A stretch of DNA of 64,000 bases from Bacilli bacterium. Lineage in GTDB: Bacteria > Bacillota_I > Bacilli_A > RF39 > UBA660. The notes under the pieces are model-generated. The model saw only the letters and a program-made list of their open reading frames with translations, had not been told where the DNA came from and ran no database searches. The position numbers and the translations under genes were made by a program. Below, one piece after another: positions 1,935 to 53,171 of the stretch; within the stretch, counting starts at the first letter, position 1; each line of letters opens with the position of its first letter. The stretch spans positions 66,546-130,545 of the forward strand of contig CAADYO010000001.1 in the NCBI GenBank assembly GCA_900753325.1, read 5' to 3'.

Positions 1935-4010
1935 CTATAAGTTAACAGGCTTTAAAATCCAACGTTGTGATAATAAAAATCCACTTGTTCCTTTACTCAT
2001 TATTTTGACATCTGATGATGTATAGTAAGAATTTGTTCTAGCTGTTAAATAATTTGATCCTATTTTGGCTTGAATAATATATGTTCCATCTTTTTGAGAG
2101 ACTATTTGCCATTGTGTCCATTGATAGGCATCATTATAACCAGATGCAGTATTTACTTGAGTGTCTGATTGTCCTAGACTATCTTTTACTTGAAGAGCAG
2201 TATTTGAATTCGTTTCAACGATTTTATAGTATGCTGTATTTGGTATTTTACCAATTGCCCATTCTTGAATAGCAGTTGTTTGTTGAGGTTCAATTCTAAC
2301 ATACTGTTTAGAACGGTCCATGGCGTCTGTAACATCATTAGCGTTTTTGGCAGTTAATGCTTGATTGTATGGGGCTAAGGCTGAATAAATATAATATACA
2401 CCATCTGGTATTTCGTTATTACTAGTATTTAAATTACAGTTTGTATATCTAGTACCCGATGTCTTTTCAATAATATTTTCTTGTGTATTAGATTCACTGG
2501 CAATTAATGCTGTCCAGTTGGTATTATCACTAGATACTGAAAGACTATGTCCTATAAGTGGGTTATCGCTTTTCTCCCAATCATGAATAACACTTATTTC
2601 ATTTAGATTTGAAGTTTCTGATAATTCTACTTTTAGGCAAACTTCACTTGCTTCAGCTTTACTTACTTCTACATTAGTTTCTAAGTTTTTATCAGTTAAA
2701 CGGCTTATACTTCCTGTTAGTTTAGTTTGTCCAGTTATACTTGGCGTTTTAAAGCTAACTTTCTTACCATTTTCATCTATAGCACTTATTTCTGACCAGA
2801 TAACTTTTGTTTTGTCTTTAACAGTTCCGTAACTACAGTCTTTTATATAGCGAACATTTTTTAATTGCTCATTTTTAATTGGTTTATTATCTTTTGAATT
2901 ACTTGATATATATTCTATTCGAGCAGCTCCATTACCTTCATTGACACCAGCAGTCATTTGGCCATCAATAAAATATCTACCATCGTCAACAAATAAAGCT
3001 AATTCATCACGAGATGAAAATTTAGTTATATAATTCATATTAGAATAGCCAGCTATAAATGATGAGCCACCTGCTCCAGAACCGGCAATATCATTATATT
3101 GGTTGCCGGCTCCGCCACCGACGTAGCCAGCTCCACCGCCACCGCCGGAATCATATGGAACACCGCCACCTTCACCTAAGGAACCACATGTTTTATTATC
3201 ACTTTTTTCATCTTTATGAAAAATATTGCCATCAATCTTAATAACAGCTCCATTACAATTTTCAGAATATGTTTTTATATTGATAAATGACCATCTTTTA
3301 CTTCCTGTTTGACCGCCATACTTAGCATTTGTGTATTCTGCTGAGCCTGATTTTATTTTATTTGCACTACCGGATGCTCCAAAAGTCTCTCCACCTTCAC
3401 CTCCTGGTGATCCATCTCCAAGGCCATCGGCTCCACCACCTCCGGCTGCAATCATTATTCTTGACTGGAGTGATTCTACTAAATCCCAGTTTCCAGATTT
3501 TGTTCTTACGTCAGTTGAACCGCCGCCACCTTTACCAGTTTTGGTGCCACCGTTTCCACCACCATTTGTTCCTCCTGTTGCTGTTGTTGTTGTGCCGCCT
3601 ATATAAAAATATAATAATGTACCCTTGTCAAAATAGATAACACCAGAGGTATAGGCTCCTTTACCACCAGCTTGCTCTTTACCAGTTTCTGATGTTGTAC
3701 TACCGCCTGATGCTCCCCATAGTTCAATCCTATACCAACCAGAGTTTGGAACTTGATACTCCTTTGGATTACCATCACTAACATCGCTAAACTCAAACTT
3801 GGTGTTTGATACACTATATCTATTTAAATCATCTTCTACTGTTTCAACTAAATCATGTGTGCTTTTTCTATTTGAGGCCATTATACTCATGATTAAAATT
3901 ACGATTAAAAATACCATTATTAATAGTGAATATAATACTGTAGATATAGCAAAACCTTTATTATTTAATTTTTTAATTTTCTTATTTTTATTCATTAGCA
4001 TCACCAGCAC
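1935..4010 (-). CDS. Membrane-anchored secreted protein with a glycine-rich (ALK-type Gly_rich) domain, a possible discoidin-like middle region and a C-terminal ricin-B (QxW) lectin domain
   Basis: The 691-aa ORF has an N-terminal basic stretch plus one hydrophobic helix (signal anchor). Long poly-Gly blocks follow (WGASGG..., AAGGGGADGLGDGSPGGEGG, SGGGGGAGYVGGGAG). The C-terminus carries QxW repeats (YQWTQWQI, SQRWIL, IQEWAIG). Confidence 0.6.
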   Translation of the reverse strand: MLVMLMNKNKKIKKLNNKGFAISTVLYSLLIMVFLIVILIMSIMASNRKSTHDLVETVEDDLNRYSVSNTKFEFSDVSDGNPKEYQVPNSGWYRIELWGASGGSTTSETGKEQAGGKGAYTSGVIYFDKGTLLYFYIGGTTTTATGGTNGGGNGGTKTGKGGGGSTDVRTKSGNWDLVESLQSRIMIAAGGGGADGLGDGSPGGEGGETFGASGSANKIKSGSAEYTNAKYGGQTGSKRWSFINIKTYSENCNGAVIKIDGNIFHKDEKSDNKTCGSLGEGGGVPYDSGGGGGAGYVGGGAGNQYNDIAGSGAGGSSFIAGYSNMNYITKFSSRDELALFVDDGRYFIDGQMTAGVNEGNGAARIEYISSNSKDNKPIKNEQLKNVRYIKDCSYGTVKDKTKVIWSEISAIDENGKKVSFKTPSITGQTKLTGSISRLTDKNLETNVEVSKAEASEVCLKVELSETSNLNEISVIHDWEKSDNPLIGHSLSVSSDNTNWTALIASESNTQENIIEKTSGTRYTNCNLNTSNNEIPDGVYYIYSALAPYNQALTAKNANDVTDAMDRSKQYVRIEPQQTTAIQEWAIGKIPNTAYYKIVETNSNTALQVKDSLGQSDTQVNTASGYNDAYQWTQWQIVSQKDGTYIIQAKIGSNYLTARTNSYYTSSDVKIMSKGTSGFLLSQRWILKPVNL

Positions 4011-4039
4011 TTCTACCTTTTATTTTACTCTCTTATATT

Positions 4040-4597
4040 TTAACATATATTTCTTAGGATAACTACCCATTTATCACCATATTTTTTTTCTTTTATTTTA
4101 GTAAATGAATCATCATATATAATTTTATCTAAACTATTACTTTCACAAATAATTAGGCCAGAGCTGTTTAGAAGTTTTAAATTACTTATTAACTTAAGGC
4201 TTTCTTCTATATAATTTGTCGCATATGGTGGATCTAAAAAAATTAAATCAAATTTTATTTTTTTTGAAGAAAATTCTTTTAGGACTATTTTGTAATCTGA
4301 AAGGATAACTTTACAGTTTTTTACACCGATAGTTTTAATATTTTCATTTATTATTTTTATTGCTTGATGACTTTTATCTACGGCATAAGCAAAGGAAGCT
4401 CCTTCACTTAATGCTTCAATAGCAAGAGAGCCTGATCCAGAAAATAAATCAAGTACAATACTTTCTTGTATATTATCTTGAATACTAGCAAAAAGGCTTT
4501 CTTTTACTCTATCCATGGTAGGTCTAGTACCATCAAGATTATATCCAAGTAAATTTCTACCTTTATATATTCCGCTAATTACTTTCATAATCCACAC
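4040..4597 (-). CDS. rsmD: 16S rRNA (guanine966-N2)-methyltransferase RsmD
   Basis: The 185-aa ORF has DLFSGSGSLAIEALSEGA (the SAM-binding motif) and a DPPY motif. The size is typical of RsmD/YlbH. Confidence 0.85.
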   Translation of the reverse strand: MWIMKVISGIYKGRNLLGYNLDGTRPTMDRVKESLFASIQDNIQESIVLDLFSGSGSLAIEALSEGASFAYAVDKSHQAIKIINENIKTIGVKNCKVILSDYKIVLKEFSSKKIKFDLIFLDPPYATNYIEESLKLISNLKLLNSSGLIICESNSLDKIIYDDSFTKIKEKKYGDKWVVILRNIC

Positions 4598-23138: not shown

Positions 23139-23795
23139 TTATAGTTGTATCCTATCAATTAAACTTTTGGTTAATACTTTTACATTTTGTGTTCCATCCA
23201 ATCTTTCAATATCATATTTATCTACATATTTGTTCCATATTAAAGCGGCTTGTTTCAACATTTCTAAGTTTTCCTTTTCTTCCGGTATATCCTTTCTATT
23301 CTGAATACGTTGAAATGCTACTTCAGGTGGAACATCTAGATAGAATGGAAAGGTCGGTTCAATGATTTTGCCCTCATATAAAGCACTTTCTAAAACCTTT
23401 AGGGATGAAGGTGCTGATGTTTCACTGTATAGTTCTGACAAAACCATTTTGCCATATATATACCAATCAGTTACTAAAAAATCATTGTTGTTTAGAATTT
23501 CTGGAAATATCGTTCTTAAGTATGTCAAAAAGGAAACATTATGAAAGATTTGATTTTCATCTCGAGTAATAATTTTTTTTCTTACGCAACCATTTACCAC
23601 ATCCCAAAATACATTGAAACTAGATGATGTGTTGAAGATACAGGCTTTATACCCGGCAAAATTAATTTCATTTACAACATTTTGTGCTAATGCTGTCTTT
23701 CCCGAGCCATCAATTCCTTCTATTGTAATTATTCTTCCTTTTTTATCAGCTATAATCGAATCATTTTCTATACTTTTGTTAAATATACTTTCCAT
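23139..23795 (-). CDS. P-loop nucleoside/nucleotide kinase, thymidylate-kinase-like
   Basis: The 218-aa ORF has IEGIDGSGKT, a Walker A typical of Tmk/dNK-family kinases. The lid region diverges from canonical Tmk. Confidence 0.5.
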   Translation of the reverse strand: MESIFNKSIENDSIIADKKGRIITIEGIDGSGKTALAQNVVNEINFAGYKACIFNTSSSFNVFWDVVNGCVRKKIITRDENQIFHNVSFLTYLRTIFPEILNNNDFLVTDWYIYGKMVLSELYSETSAPSSLKVLESALYEGKIIEPTFPFYLDVPPEVAFQRIQNRKDIPEEKENLEMLKQAALIWNKYVDKYDIERLDGTQNVKVLTKSLIDRIQL

Positions 23796-26154
23796 CTTTT
23801 TTTTGCTTCCTATAATTCTTAATACATACTTGCCATCCTTTTATATTTCCTTTTAAACTGTGAACTGTATAGCTAATTGGCAAATTATATTTTTTGAAGA
23901 TTCTTCTTAATATCTTGTTTATAGTATACAACTCATGTCCAACCAATGCCCACCATAAATAACGATAATCCTTATACTTTAAAAAAATAAACATACTAAC
24001 ACCTGTATCTTGCATTCCATAACGGTATAATTTTTGTTTTATTTCTTCCTCTGTTGTTGGATGCTGATGATATATTTGTATTTCTGGGTTGTACAATAAC
24101 TCATATCCTTTTTTTGCTATTTTGTATCCTATTTCTAATGTTAAGCCATCAACATTGTTGTTTGTTCCTAAAAATTCTTCATAGCCACCGACTTCAAGTA
24201 AAACTTTCTTAGGAATCATTTGATTTGCTCCTGCACACATCTTATGTAATTTCCAGGGAATAAATTTATGCTTGAATTTTTTTAGGTATCTTCTAGACCA
24301 ATATTTAATTTTATTTCCTTTACTCAAACCGCCCTTTTGTTCCCATACCTTAGAATAAGCATTTGATGTCTTACTATACATGCTTACTTTTCCGGAGCAA
24401 TACCCAAGATTTGAATTCTTTTTAAATTCTTCCACAAATTTGTACAACCATTTTTCATCACTTATAATTGTGTCATCATCTGTACTTACTATATACTTTC
24501 CATTTGCCTTTTTTATTCCATAATTTAGGGCAAATGATTTTCCTTGTCTTGGTTCATGAAATACACTAACATTATATTGTTCCTCAAATTTTTTTGTTTT
24601 GATGTATGTTTTATCTGAATAATGATTTTGAATTATTATTACCTCTATATTTCTATCTTCAAGTATTTTCGTTTCTTTCAAACTGTTTAATAACAGCTTT
24701 AGCTTGTGATCATTTTTGTATGTCGGTATGATCAATGATATTAATTTTTCGTTTTTATACTCTGTACCATTAATATACAATGTATCCGCCTTACTTTTCA
24801 AAAATGTTTCAATAGCGTCGTCAACGCTATCACATATTGGATCTCCCATTACATTTAGTGATGTATTCATTAGTATTGGGGCTAACCCTTTATCTTTTAA
24901 CTTATATAATATATCATATAAGATCGGATTATCATTTTTCATTAAGGTTTGAACTCTTGTAGTTCCATCGACGTGAACAATTGCTGGAGCCAATTCTTTT
25001 GTTATACTCTTTGCATTTGCACAAAACGTCATGTATGGAGAATCATAATCTTGATAAAAGTACTCACTCACAAGTTCCCTAGGAATGACAGCTGCGACAG
25101 GTCTATATGGTTCTCTACCTTTGATTTCCTCACTTATTCTTTGTTTCATTTTCATTGTATTTGGTAACCCTATAAAACTTCTATGTCCTAATGCTCTGGC
25201 CCCTATCTCACTTCTTCCTTGATACCACGCTATAATTTTTCCCTCAAGTAAATCATCAATAACTTTTTCATCATACAATGAATTAGACTCTATTCCATTG
25301 CCTAAATATGGATAATCACATTTTATTCTTGGATGGTTGTATAGAATTGCCCCTAGGGATTGTCCTGAATCTGTTGAAATGGGACTAACATAAACGTTAT
25401 CATAGATTTTTTCATCTATTAGTTTTGAATTAAGCGTAATATTTAATGCACACCCACCAACAAGACATATATTTCTTGAAAATTCGTTATGCTTTTTTAA
25501 ATGCTCTGCACAACTATCAACCCAGAATTTATGTGCATTAAATGCAATATCTTGTTTATATGGATCTTTCCATACTTCTGTATATATTGGTCTTAATTTA
25601 AAAGTCTTCAGAAGACCGTCAACATTATCGAAATATAACTGGTTTATATCTTGAACATTTGTCTTTATTAGCTGCATTATTTTTTCGTTATATTTTCCAT
25701 ATGAACTTAGTCCCATTAGCTTTCCTACTCCACTTGTATGTGCTTTGCTTCCTTTTGGCTCTATTATCATTTGGGCGATAGTTCCATAGAATTTACCTGT
25801 AAAAGGCCTATCATCTAGTTCTTCAACTAACCATACTTTATTACCTTTTTTATAGTATAGCTTAGTATATCCGTCTTCTGAACCACCATCGGAACATAAA
25901 ATGACACATTTTTTAAAATTAGAAGGATATGACGTTCCAATGTGGTTATTATGATGTCCAGTTAACTTTGCTTTAAACTTTCTTCCTAAAATAGTTACTT
26001 CATCTGAACCATATAGATTATTCCATTTAGTTATTAATAACTCCGATATATCATCTATACTTATTTTTAAACTTTGTAAAGCTTGCAATATTAATTTTTC
26101 TACTTCATCTGTATTTTTAAATCTTGCGTGTTTTTTTTCTACATATTCTTTCAT
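23779..26154 (-). CDS. Carbamoyltransferase (NodU/CmcH family) fused to a C-terminal GT2 glycosyltransferase domain; its N-terminus sits in a separate frame (see 26117..26320)
   Basis: The 791-aa ORF has a Carbam_trans core (LVGGCALNITLNS...YVSPISTDSGQSLGAI). The C-terminus has a GT2 signature (LISLIIPTYKNDHKL...STDDDTI). Confidence 0.7.
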   Translation of the reverse strand: MKEYVEKKHARFKNTDEVEKLILQALQSLKISIDDISELLITKWNNLYGSDEVTILGRKFKAKLTGHHNNHIGTSYPSNFKKCVILCSDGGSEDGYTKLYYKKGNKVWLVEELDDRPFTGKFYGTIAQMIIEPKGSKAHTSGVGKLMGLSSYGKYNEKIMQLIKTNVQDINQLYFDNVDGLLKTFKLRPIYTEVWKDPYKQDIAFNAHKFWVDSCAEHLKKHNEFSRNICLVGGCALNITLNSKLIDEKIYDNVYVSPISTDSGQSLGAILYNHPRIKCDYPYLGNGIESNSLYDEKVIDDLLEGKIIAWYQGRSEIGARALGHRSFIGLPNTMKMKQRISEEIKGREPYRPVAAVIPRELVSEYFYQDYDSPYMTFCANAKSITKELAPAIVHVDGTTRVQTLMKNDNPILYDILYKLKDKGLAPILMNTSLNVMGDPICDSVDDAIETFLKSKADTLYINGTEYKNEKLISLIIPTYKNDHKLKLLLNSLKETKILEDRNIEVIIIQNHYSDKTYIKTKKFEEQYNVSVFHEPRQGKSFALNYGIKKANGKYIVSTDDDTIISDEKWLYKFVEEFKKNSNLGYCSGKVSMYSKTSNAYSKVWEQKGGLSKGNKIKYWSRRYLKKFKHKFIPWKLHKMCAGANQMIPKKVLLEVGGYEEFLGTNNNVDGLTLEIGYKIAKKGYELLYNPEIQIYHQHPTTEEEIKQKLYRYGMQDTGVSMFIFLKYKDYRYLWWALVGHELYTINKILRRIFKKYNLPISYTVHSLKGNIKGWQVCIKNYRKQKKDGKYI

Positions 26155-26320
26155 ATTCCAAATGCAAAAGAATTTTTTTGTTATCTGCTATAGTTATAGA
26201 AGAATCATGGTAGCAAAAAGATATTGACAATATGTATTTTTTCATTAATTCTTTTCTCCATTTCTTTTTGTTTACTATGTTATCATCTTTTAAAAATTTG
26301 TCAATATATGGTTGTATCAT
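26117..26320 (-). pseudogene. Out-of-frame N-terminal fragment of the carbamoyltransferase gene (frameshift at an A8 tract)
   Basis: The 67-aa ORF ...KYILSISFCYHDSSITIADNKKILLHLEYERICRKK matches the conserved NodU N-terminus (ILGIS..YHDSAAAL...EERFTRKKH). It joins the 791-aa frame if one A is removed from the A8 run at 26131-26138 on the coding strand. Confidence 0.6.
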
Positions 26321-26409: not shown

Positions 26410-26904
26410 TTATTTTATATATAGTTTGTTTCTTTCTCCTACAGAACTATGACTTCCAGTTTCTTTTGCGTTTGACAATCCTAAAAAAGTAGTAACAAAC
26501 GCATCTACACCTTTTTTTAAGTCTTCTTCTGTGTCAAAGGCTCTAGTGCAATCAGTCTTTGGTATAATATAAGACTTTCCATTAGGGGATGTATAATTAA
26601 TCACTTTACTTTCTGGGTACTTTTCTAAAAACTCTTCTGTTTCATAATCGAAATTGAAATTAAGTGTCATATCGGCAGGTTCAACTTTACCTACTATATA
26701 TCTTATTGTTTTTATTGTAGTCCTTTCTTCTAAATCAGCACCTAAATATGGTATTTCTTGATTTAGACTTACTATAACTGGTGACTCTTTTACAGGATAT
26801 TTATAATCTTCTAATGAATCTACTATATCACAATAAGTTACTAATTGTGGACAACTGGCATGACAGTGATAGTAGATTGTTAGGGCTTTTTGTCTTCCTT
26901 CCAT
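26410..26904 (-). CDS. Hypothetical protein, paralog A of a duplicated pair flanking the CYTH gene
   Basis: The 164-aa ORF shares blocks with ORF 27670..28173: L-T-[IV]-YYHC, PVIVSL, YTSPNGKSYIIPKTDCTRAFDTEEDL / YKTPSGKVYTTPKSNCTKAFETKEKL, and GVDAFVTTFLGL / GVDAFITRFLNL. Confidence 0.5.
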   Translation of the reverse strand: MEGRQKALTIYYHCHASCPQLVTYCDIVDSLEDYKYPVKESPVIVSLNQEIPYLGADLEERTTIKTIRYIVGKVEPADMTLNFNFDYETEEFLEKYPESKVINYTSPNGKSYIIPKTDCTRAFDTEEDLKKGVDAFVTTFLGLSNAKETGSHSSVGERNKLYIK

Positions 26905-27007: not shown

Positions 27008-27646
27008 TTAAAATTCAGTTTTAATACTAGGCATGTCTTTATCAAAAGTAACGATATTATAAACTTCTTTTCCCTGTTCTTTACATATTTCACTATATTT
27101 ATCGTCCCAGGATAATTGATAAGCATCATTTATATTTAAATTCAGTTTTTCTAGCCAGTAATTAATTATTTCTTTGGCTTTGTCTGTATGAGTTTTATCT
27201 TCTATTTCTAGAGCTATTCCAAATGGATATTCATCTACTACAATTTCTATTTCTTTATTTGAATATACATTTCGATATCTTTCATAACTTTCTACTAAAT
27301 CTAGATGAATTACATTTTGTAGTAAATGTATTAGATTATCATATTCACTTGGGTCTATACTTATCTCTACTTCTTCTTCAGTATGAATTAGTTCTTTTGT
27401 TGTACTTGGTAATCTTCTTTTCCAAGTAATCATACATTTAGAAATTTCAGAGGAAGATGTTTTTCTTACTCTAAATCTACCGTCTATTTCCTTACTATAG
27501 AAGTTGTATTCTTTCATTGGATGATTATATTGATCTGTTTTTTCATAAAATGTGCCTTGATAATTTAATTCAGTAAAAGTATTTAGTTTGTTTAGAATTT
27601 TGTCTTTACTATTTTTAGAAAAATAATATCTAATCTCTATTTCCAT
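27008..27646 (-). CDS. CYTH-domain protein (triphosphate tunnel metalloenzyme; CyaB/ThTPase-like)
   Basis: The 212-aa ORF starts MEIEIRYYF (ExExK-type motif). It has RFRVRK and acidic C-terminal strands (EIVVDEYPFGIALEIEDK) typical of the CYTH fold. Confidence 0.6.
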   Translation of the reverse strand: MEIEIRYYFSKNSKDKILNKLNTFTELNYQGTFYEKTDQYNHPMKEYNFYSKEIDGRFRVRKTSSSEISKCMITWKRRLPSTTKELIHTEEEVEISIDPSEYDNLIHLLQNVIHLDLVESYERYRNVYSNKEIEIVVDEYPFGIALEIEDKTHTDKAKEIINYWLEKLNLNINDAYQLSWDDKYSEICKEQGKEVYNIVTFDKDMPSIKTEF

Positions 27647-27669: not shown

Positions 27670-28173
27670 TTATTTTGTATATACCTTTGGCGAATCTATT
27701 GAACTTTTTGATATACTGACGTTTTCTTTTTTGTCTTTTAAATTTAAGAATCTAGTAATAAATGCATCTACTCCGGCTTGTAATTTCTCTTTTGTTTCGA
27801 AAGCTTTAGTACAATTACTTTTAGGAGTTGTATAAACTTTACCGGATGGAGTTTTATAAGTAATCATTTTACCTTCATAACAGCTTTCATAAAAATCAAT
27901 CGGATTTAAAACTTTGTAAATACTTGCATGGGTAATAACACGTTCTGCATCTTCTTCTTGTCCTAATACATATCTGACAGTTTTTGTAGCAGTATGTTCT
28001 TTTAACTCAGCATCTAAATATGAGACTTTTTGACGAAGGCTTACAATAACTGGTGATGTTGTGGGATATTCATAATCTTTTTTCGAACCTATTTGATTAT
28101 ATGATGAAACTATTTGTGGATATTCTTCATTACAATGATAGTAAACCGTTAAGATTTCATTTGTTCTTTTCAT
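27670..28173 (-). CDS. Hypothetical protein, paralog B of the duplicated pair
   Basis: The 167-aa ORF is collinear with ORF 26410..26904 (see that entry). Confidence 0.5.
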   Translation of the reverse strand: MKRTNEILTVYYHCNEEYPQIVSSYNQIGSKKDYEYPTTSPVIVSLRQKVSYLDAELKEHTATKTVRYVLGQEEDAERVITHASIYKVLNPIDFYESCYEGKMITYKTPSGKVYTTPKSNCTKAFETKEKLQAGVDAFITRFLNLKDKKENVSISKSSIDSPKVYTK

Positions 28174-31822: not shown

Positions 31823-32465
31823 TTAACTATTTTGACAATGTATTCTTAATTCTTCAAACATAATATTTATACTGGCATTTATATCTCTATCATTTTCGCA
31901 TCCACAATTTAAACATGTCCAGTTTCTAACTTCCAAATTATTTGTTTCTTGTGTTATTTCATCACAATGACTACATTTTTTACTGCTTGGAAAGCATGTA
32001 TCTACTTGATAATAATATTTTCCAAGTAAATTACTTTGCCATTGAAGCATTTGATATATTTTATTAAAAATGACATCTAGTATATTTTTAGCTAAATTGT
32101 GATTACTACTCATTTCTTTAACATTTAATTTTCACTTACAATGATGTCATGTTATTTTACTTAACACAGGTCCTACTTTGTCAAATATAACGCTTACATA
32201 ATATTTATTTTTTGTCTCTTTTTCTACAGTCGCATTTATTATTCTACCATTAATTTTTTCTAATTTTCTATAACCTCTAACATCTACAAATTCAAGTTTT
32301 GGTAATTTTATCTTTTTATTTTTTAAATCTTGGATAATTCGTTCTTTTAGAAAAATAATTTTTAAAACTATCTTCTAAATTGAAAACAACACATCTCAAA
32401 CTACAAGAGTCTACTTCCTTTAAGAATGAATATTCGATATATAAACTTTTTATTTCGCTACACAT
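31823..32465 (-). pseudogene. Degraded IS200/IS605-family tnpB (OrfB) remnant
   Basis: The 96-aa ORF ends with the TnpB zinc ribbon (CSHCDEITQETNNLEVRNWTCLNCGCENDRDINASINI). Upstream, in two other frames, are ...FLKEVDSCSLRCVVFNLEDSFKNYFSKRTNYPRFKK and IKLPKLEFVDVRGYRKLEKINGRIINATVEKETKNKYYVSVIFD, which match the TnpB middle region. It is interrupted by stops and frameshifts, and the N-terminal and RuvC parts are missing. Confidence 0.65.
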
Positions 32466-53033: not shown

Positions 53034-53171
53034 TAATATATACCTCCTTTTATTAATAACTTAAGACTCGCTCTCAAGGTACAAATAAATTGTTTAAAAC
53101 CTTTTCAATGCGGTTTGAGCATGAGGCGTCAAACATCTAGATTATAGCATAACTATTTTAACCTGTCAACT

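Follow-up and report, generated by a model that had tools for sequence, protein, structure and literature searches.

A gene on the minus strand of the 64,000-nucleotide (nt) stretch of contig CAADYO010000001.1 analyzed here (hereafter, the window), which belongs to a Bacilli bacterium, is divided into two open reading frames (ORFs) by one additional A in a run of A residues. When intact, the gene is predicted to encode a bifunctional enzyme in which a TobZ/NodU-type O-carbamoyltransferase is fused to a GT2 glycosyltransferase. The divided form is probably a genuine and recent loss-of-function allele, generated by replication slippage, of a surface-glycan gene that is dispensable under some conditions; the host is an uncultured Bacilli lineage of the gut with a small genome of 29% GC. 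A real loss of function was considered the most likely explanation because many independent knock-outs of the same gene, nonsense codons included, were found among its close relatives. A sequence-only reading of the window had offered three explanations for the split, namely a sequencing or assembly error, a recent pseudogenization, and a phase-variable switch. Recent loss of function is now the most likely of these, an error is less likely, and the switch is unproven; that the change is biological rather than artefactual is, we infer, most likely.

Structure of the disrupted gene

The minus strand across the junction reads TGTAGAAAAAAAACACGCAAGA, and the A run that the sequence-only reading had reported there was counted as exactly 8 nt (26131..26138, minus strand; tract 2). 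The codons on this strand are GAA TAT GAA AGA ATA TGT AGA AAA AAA ACA CGC AAG ATT TAA. The first ORF (26117..26320, minus strand) comprises 67 amino acids (aa) and its C-terminal end is EYERICRKKTRKI followed by a stop codon. The second (23779..26154, minus strand) comprises 791 aa and is in the +1 frame relative to the first, one base further 3', and the two share an overlap at 26117..26154. This layout is the one that had been described, and the repair proposed with it also held: removal of one A gives ...EYERICRKKHARFKN... and an uninterrupted protein of 821 codons, in which the RKKH motif is conserved as far as TobZ. Tract 2 encodes Arg36-Lys37-Lys38 (AGA AAA AAA) of this motif. Another homopolymer, an A7 run (tract 1; 26173..26179, minus strand), lies in codons 22 to 25 (AAC AAA AAA ATT) and is in frame in the window; it is A8 in the related locus L019 and A6 in L043, both of which are disruptive. 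The complete carbamoyltransferase-GT2 gene (23779..26245, minus strand) showed 99.88% identity to intact alleles, with the one indel as its sole lesion and zero stop codons. It thus carries a disabling lesion relative to intact orthologues while the rest of the gene is undecayed, as is characteristic of a pseudogene.

The true start is the ATG of MKKYILS at 26245, which gives 821 aa in intact alleles and is preceded, 10 nt upstream, by a GGAG ribosome-binding site read from the sequence (26256..26259, minus strand). A longer version of 846 aa, which some gene callers start at the ATG at 26320, was rejected because its 25-codon extension contains a TAA in L001, L002, and L019. A promoter-like TTGACA-16 nt-TAACAT sequence with an upstream TG (26277..26304, minus strand), identified only as a consensus match, is also located inside this spurious extension. 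The 67-aa ORF of the sequence-only reading therefore lies where it was placed, but its start is not real, and the 5' fragment that runs from MKKYILS to the TAA (26117..26245, minus strand) is 42 aa long. This fragment contains strands b1 to b3, helix a1, and the invariant residues His13 and Asp14. The 791-aa ORF contains residues 39 to 821 after eight out-of-frame codons, and its ATG has no Shine-Dalgarno sequence.

These features suggest how the allele may have arisen and what it would produce. Replication slippage would have added one A to the A7 run encoding Arg36-Lys37-Lys38, and ribosomes starting at 26245 would be released at the TAA (26117..26119) with a product of 42 residues. The other 783 codons would go untranslated, or would be translated from the ATG at 26154, which lacks a ribosome-binding site. 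A product from this ATG would lack b1 to b3, the first three core strands, together with His13 and Asp14, and carbamoyltransferase activity would therefore be lost. The GT2 part is probably not made from the A8 allele. A slip back from A8 to A7 could restore the gene.

Recurrent inactivation of the gene in related strains

All fetched loci were compared with an intact reference allele, and those with a gene identity of 97.6 to 100% to it were taken as one species-level clade. At least nine independent knock-outs were found in this clade, the window included, and consist of six homopolymer indels and three nonsense alleles. In addition to the change from A7 to A8 at tract 2 (nt 108) in the window, tract 1 (nt 67) changed from A7 to A8 in L019, a locus returned from the one-genome-per-species GTDB collection, and from A7 to A6 in L043. 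The A7 run at nt 1245 was shortened to A6 in L031, L032, and three more contigs (five in total), and the C4 run at nt 1364 was changed to C3 in L033 and to C5 in L034. The nonsense alleles are a change of Gln191 from CAG to TAG, which is the same in L017 and L045, a change of Trp649 from TGG to TAG in L041, and the combination of Trp340 TGG to TAG with Gln814 CAA to TAA in L042. Two further lesions were observed in sister species with approximately 70% protein identity: a 1-nt deletion at GAAAAAAAAGG, an A8GG junction, in L035 and L036 (five contigs), and, in L038, replacement of the TGG of a conserved Trp by TGA. A genetic code in which TGA specifies Trp was considered for L038 and judged unlikely; with table 11, 90% of the window is coding and TGA is a rare stop codon, and the other genes of L038 are of normal length.

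L033 and L034 belong to one sub-lineage and share an adjacent A-to-G substitution; they have C3 and C5 where all other alleles have C4 (approximately 24877..24880 of the window). Variation in both directions was unexpected for a run as short as this.

Nonsense codons cannot be homopolymer miscounts, and two frameshift alleles were each seen in several samples. It is therefore apparent that the knock-outs are real. When contigs were sampled through the identical protein of the downstream thymidylate kinase gene (tmk), a procedure blind to the state of the gene, 19 of 23 carried an intact copy and 4 a disrupted one, with four different lesions. The Ham1, GreA, and acetyltransferase genes on these contigs were intact wherever they were shown. 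When the identical 164-aa protein encoded upstream served as the anchor instead, 20 copies were intact and 1 was disrupted. Among 18 neighboring genes in nine strains, only 1 of 162 copies was disrupted, by a nonsense codon in a 212-aa gene of L006. The difference between 4/23 and 1/162 was significant by Fisher's test (p = 9e-4) and gave p = 0.02 after gene-length normalization. Furthermore, the protein cluster of this gene includes pieces of 791, 433, 404, 377, 363, and 295 aa, whereas in the clusters of seven other long genes of the window the members most often listed were full length, except for 531-aa members in a large multi-species ParE cluster. The intact alleles had a ratio of nonsynonymous to synonymous substitution rates (dN/dS) of approximately 0.2, comparable to that of neighboring genes; they are thus under purifying selection, and the gene is functional when intact. 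Purifying selection on the intact alleles together with the many independent knock-outs indicates that the gene is lost unusually often and is useful but conditionally dispensable.

Several points weigh against this interpretation of the window allele. Contigs taken from separate samples do not amount to independent strains, which makes the above frequency figures rough. In a second lineage (tmk P0126), all 17 complete copies were intact, and loss is thus not uniformly frequent. Only three contigs (NCBI, ENA) are listed as sources of the exact 791-aa product, and the A8 allele is without an independent replicate; three listed contigs are the usual count for one deposited metagenome-assembled genome (MAG), and the three are probably a single such deposit. 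Neither the 791-aa product nor the tmk product of the window had a record in the contig index, and the A8 allele was not traced to other samples. Loss of surface-glycan decoration is a common route of escape from phages or antibodies, and the idea that phage or host pressure favored the loss here is purely inferential.

Comparison of the A8 allele with its closest relatives

Tract 2 was A7 and in frame in all 39 near-identical related loci compared, the comparison with orthologues that the sequence-only reading had proposed as a check. Over 22.5 kb, the window differed from L007 by 33 substitutions and a single indel, that at tract 2. No mismatch to L013, L015, or L018 was found over 3.5 kb, except A8 versus A7. 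These observations have a bearing on whether the organism in fact has A7 and an intact gene, the homopolymer having been miscounted in the consensus. Homopolymers are the classic site of indel errors, the A8 allele apparently comes from a single deposited assembly and was not found in other contigs, and near-identical contigs are all A7, three of them with no mismatches over 3.5 kb. However, the same 22.5-kb stretch holds approximately 20 further A/T runs of at least 7 nt, and no second homopolymer indel relative to this closest relative was found in it; likewise, no further change of homopolymer length was found within any gene in ten near-identical strains over the same 22.5 kb. The coding strands of the window contain 54 A7 and 19 A8 runs; apart from tract 2, every A8 run is in frame (18 runs), as is every other ORF of at least 100 aa, and the coding density is 90%. 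The single indel relative to L007 and the in-frame state of the other A8 runs therefore indicate that the assembly is not prone to homopolymer errors.

The frequency of real lesions also argues against a miscount. Real knock-outs, nonsense codons included, were present in approximately 10 to 17% of the contigs sampled blind to the state of the gene, whereas less than 1% of the neighboring genes were disrupted. Given four different lesions in the blind sample and less than 1% in the neighbors, the prior for a real lesion is several times that for an error. A sequencing or assembly artefact was accordingly judged quite unlikely, and less likely than a real loss-of-function mutation. Scans of Joint Genome Institute (JGI) metagenomes for the junction with a variable A-run length, using a two-tract pattern and a short pattern, gave no matches, and the 67-aa and 42-aa peptides had no entry in the protein collection.

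The intact enzyme and its N-terminal segment

The identification of the gene in the sequence-only reading as a carbamoyltransferase plus GT2 was borne out by three Pfam domains in the repaired protein, each of which scored higher than its gathering threshold: Carbam_trans_N (90.8 bits; cut-off, 24), Carbam_trans_C (181.6 bits; cut-off, 27), and Glycos_transf_2 (77.5 bits; cut-off, 23.3). PF02543 and PF16861 in one chain, both above threshold, place the protein among the NodU/CmcH/TobZ-type carbamoyltransferases. The NCBIfam equivalog NF041651 for NodU proper scored 140.2 bits against a cut-off of 1000, and the protein is thus a family relative and not NodU. The Carbam_trans_C domain (24763..25254, minus strand; residues 331 to 494) is the segment most like TobZ. 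The GT2 domain (24010..24738, minus strand; residues 503 to 745; PF00535) contains the invariant acidic motif D589, D590, and D591. It matched hyaluronan and cellulose synthases, GtrB, and further GT2 folds in structure (Foldseek), and is similar to exopolysaccharide glycosyltransferases.

A search over 5.8 billion proteins gave an 821-aa protein with 98% identity. Approximately 27 full-length fusion orthologues of 815 to 833 aa with 64 to 73% identity (including P0001 to P0005 and P0007 to P0027) were found, in addition to the 818-aa P0030, and many carbamoyltransferases of approximately 500 aa without a GT2 domain also matched. The fusion architecture is also present in MAGs of Nanoarchaeia, Woesearchaeota, Shapirobacteria, Vogelbacteria, and Micromonosporaceae. 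Tract 2 is A7 also in orthologues from Nanoarchaeia, Shapirobacteria, and Pirellulales. The closest relatives carry the label 'uncultured Bacilli bacterium', and the sample labels of their contigs, one of which is 1.13 Mb long, were read as human, pig, and chicken gut metagenomes. A phage or mobile origin was considered and rejected, the only such matches found being cyanophage carbamoyltransferases at 30% identity.

Residues L6, S7, F10, C11, H13, D14, S15, E30, K38, R41, and F42 are invariant in 28 fusion proteins. The HD and HHxxH motifs of the family are both present, H13, D14, H97, H98, and H101 being invariant in the 28 fusion orthologues. The YHDSS motif aligns with FHDAS of TobZ, and the TobZ alignment spans the junction (FHDAS...EERLTRKKHG). 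His14 of TobZ, of which an H14N variant is deposited as PDB 3vex, aligns with the His of the N-terminal piece; in the window, H13 and D14 are encoded on the detached 42-aa fragment. The AlphaFold 2 model had a mean predicted local distance difference test score (pLDDT) of 88.7 and a predicted template modeling score (pTM) of 0.85. The elements before the frameshift lie in residues 4 to 35 and are b1 (4 to 10), b2 (15 to 20), b3 (24 to 30), and a1 (31 to 35). The best PDB matches of the model were TobZ, GdmN, NovN, and VtdB (Foldseek E = 3e-32 to 6e-28), consistent with a Kae1-like plus YrdC-like fold.

The sequence-only reading had noted that its interpretation would fail if the N-terminal segment were normally a separate gene in orthologues. 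The 42- to 67-aa ORF would then be a small gene of its own and the 791-aa ORF the native enzyme, which is what the layout of the ORFs in the window, and nothing else, would suggest. However, all full-length orthologues are single-chain: the segment is in the same chain in the approximately 27 orthologues, P0030, the archaeal and candidate phyla radiation homologues, and TobZ, and in a confident model it makes up b1 to b3 of the fold. This makes the N-terminal piece integral to the enzyme, and a separate small gene extremely improbable.

The genes around the fusion gene include a WbbJ-like O-acetyltransferase, a SpoVB/MurJ-type flippase, a phosphomannomutase/phosphoglucomutase, and BacA. Because of this envelope-gene neighborhood and the exopolysaccharide-like GT2 part, the enzyme is predicted to build or decorate a cell-envelope glycan.

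Phase variation and slippage-mediated rescue

Surface-glycan genes are typical phase-variable loci, and the gene has features that could make it a dedicated contingency locus, in which the two 5' A7 tracts have evolved as high-rate, reversible ON/OFF switches for surface-glycan modification. Both tracts are within the first 40 codons, and two such tracts within the first 150 nt occur in only one other gene of the window (n = 52). Tract length is polymorphic, tract 1 being A6 in L043, A7, or A8 in L019, and tract 2 being A7 or, in the window, A8; the C4 run was found as C3 and C5 in one sub-lineage. Reversible short 5' A7/A8 tracts have precedents in Bacilli, namely swrA of Bacillus subtilis and flgG of Paenibacillus glucanolyticus (PMC9941203).

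On the other hand, the tracts are only 7 nt long and are not over-represented: the gene has seven A/T runs of at least 7 nt (six A and one T) in 2.47 kb as against 1.4/kb window-wide, which is not significant, and 73 A7/A8 runs are present on the coding strands in 58 kb. Neither unusual length nor over-representation thus sets these tracts apart. Tract 2 is the AGA AAA AAA of the conserved RKK and is A7 in distant orthologues too. The OFF states are not confined to repeats, since three of the nine clade knock-outs and one of the two in sister species are nonsense mutations, which a repeat cannot reverse. Moreover, one allele carries two stop codons, indicating decay, and one frameshift allele is stably inherited across five contigs. 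These results make a dedicated contingency locus unlikely, though not far-fetched. A slightly less probable form of the idea, which we regard as doubtful, is a true contingency gene whose A7 tracts and other short runs switch a carbamoylated surface glycan ON and OFF inside the host, with phages or antibodies exerting the pressure; the knock-out alleles in metagenomes would then be snapshots of an arms race. We treat the A runs as what they appear to be from their length and codon context, that is, ordinary hot spots of mutation in a gene on which selection fluctuates or is relaxed; homopolymer slippage would be the easiest mutational route to losing it.

Two Logan contigs, L053 and L054, start at the last bases of the A7 (nt 1251) and A6 (nt 751) runs of the gene, and the A7 run at these breaks is the one that is A6 in L031. 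Breakpoints at A6/A7 runs in two of six short Logan contigs may reflect within-sample tract heterogeneity or mere coverage breaks, and are too weak to use.

The frameshift might also be compensated, with some full-length enzyme being produced through slippage of RNA polymerase or a +1 ribosomal slip of tRNA-Lys. As read from the sequence, if tRNA-Lys slipped by +1 from one AAA onto the AAA that overlaps it and CAC were then read, the result would be precisely the wild-type RKKH. Poly(A)-tract frameshifts of endosymbionts have been proposed to be corrected by transcriptional slippage (PMC3017870), and ribosomes are reported to be able to slide along iterated AAA codons (PMC4363877). However, programmed recoding would be expected to conserve the out-of-frame state, and all 39 related loci have A7, the orthologues too being in frame at this point without exception. 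Restoration would require a 1-nt deletion in the RNA, whereas transcriptome-wide insertions prevail in A/T runs and deletions are rare (PMC5574713). Slippage error rates climb exponentially with run length, and restored reading frames were not detected in that transcriptome-wide study (PMC5574713); at 8 nt, the tract is comparatively short, and the window contains no run of at least 9. Rescue of the A8 allele is thus very unlikely, and a recent loss of function is the preferred interpretation.

For annotation, the two ORFs should be treated as one frameshifted gene (a pseudogene or disrupted allele), and not as a small protein and a 791-aa enzyme. A single frameshift is ordinary; recurrent inactivation with intact neighbors is a modestly informative population pattern of a known kind. 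It marks the gene as a likely target of fluctuating selection, through phage receptors or host immunity, and the gene may be a convenient marker for studies of within-host evolution in metagenomes.

Other features of the window

The window has a GC content of 29%. Of its 58 listed ORFs with 100 aa or more, 52 were kept as gene-sized, and 50 of these lie on the minus strand. The first 17 nt of tmk (23139..23795, minus strand) are shared with the 3' end of the broken gene (23779..23795), and tmk is unbroken both in the window and wherever a related locus was compared or annotated for it. An early stop 2.3 kb upstream might affect expression of the essential tmk through lost translational coupling or polarity.

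Upstream of the disrupted gene, paralogous proteins of 164 aa (26410..26904, minus strand) and 167 aa (27670..28173, minus strand) are 44% identical and have a YYHC motif in common. They flank the 212-aa protein (27008..27646, minus strand), and none of the three had a Pfam or NCBIfam match; the nonsense codon of the 212-aa gene in strain L006 is at position 75. A decayed TnpB/IS605 OrfB remnant (31823..32465, minus strand; around positions 3900 to 4500 in loci L003 to L012), which consists of a 96-aa zinc-ribbon end and a 49-aa fragment, is located between the genes for a histidine kinase and an acyltransferase. At approximately 32154 of the window, a 206-bp segment is absent in the window, L007, and L009 and present in other strains.

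Homopolymers in the window stop sharply at 8 nt, with 25 A/T runs of 7 to 8 nt between genes and none of 9 nt or more in the whole window. This ceiling is consistent with selection against runs prone to slippage in a genome with 29% GC. The sole Rfam match in the window was a ribosomal protein L21 leader (53054..53125, minus strand; 37.6 bits; gathering score, 36), and no tRNA genes were found in the 64 kb.

Comparison with known systems

The enzyme resembles TobZ, NodU, CmcH, NovN, and GdmN (PDB 3ven, 9s2t, 7vx0, and 7xb6) in having both Pfam domains, the HD(S/A)S, RKKH, and HHxxH motifs, and the same fold (Foldseek E = 1e-30 to 3e-32; target TM, approximately 0.7). In contrast to these proteins, with which it is only 20 to 24% identical, it has a C-terminal GT2 fusion and three long C-terminal helices. 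Its neighborhood also differs from those of the TobZ and NodU family systems: in place of an antibiotic or Nod-factor cluster, it contains envelope and housekeeping genes.

With the contingency loci of Campylobacter, Haemophilus, Neisseria, and Helicobacter, the gene shares the surface polysaccharide enzyme class and an intragenic homopolymer frameshift. The tracts of these classical loci are longer, typically at least 8 G/C, over-represented, and not mere codons of a peptide motif, whereas those of the window gene are A7, as common as elsewhere, and set by RKK and NKK codons. The poly(A) frameshifts of Buchnera and Blochmannia likewise occur as single indels in otherwise intact genes of AT-rich, reduced genomes, but are conserved across populations or species in runs of approximately 10 or more (PMC3017870), as opposed to one assembly and a run of 8 in the window.

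In swrA and flgG, as in the window gene, a single A is gained or lost in a 5' A7/A8 run of a Bacilli-class host, leading to an early stop that is reversible in principle. Reversion and mixed populations have been shown experimentally for swrA and flgG, in which the tract is the only recurrent lesion (PMC9941203). The window gene differs from both in encoding a glycan enzyme instead of a motility protein, and its nonsense alleles show that it is also subject to plain gene loss.

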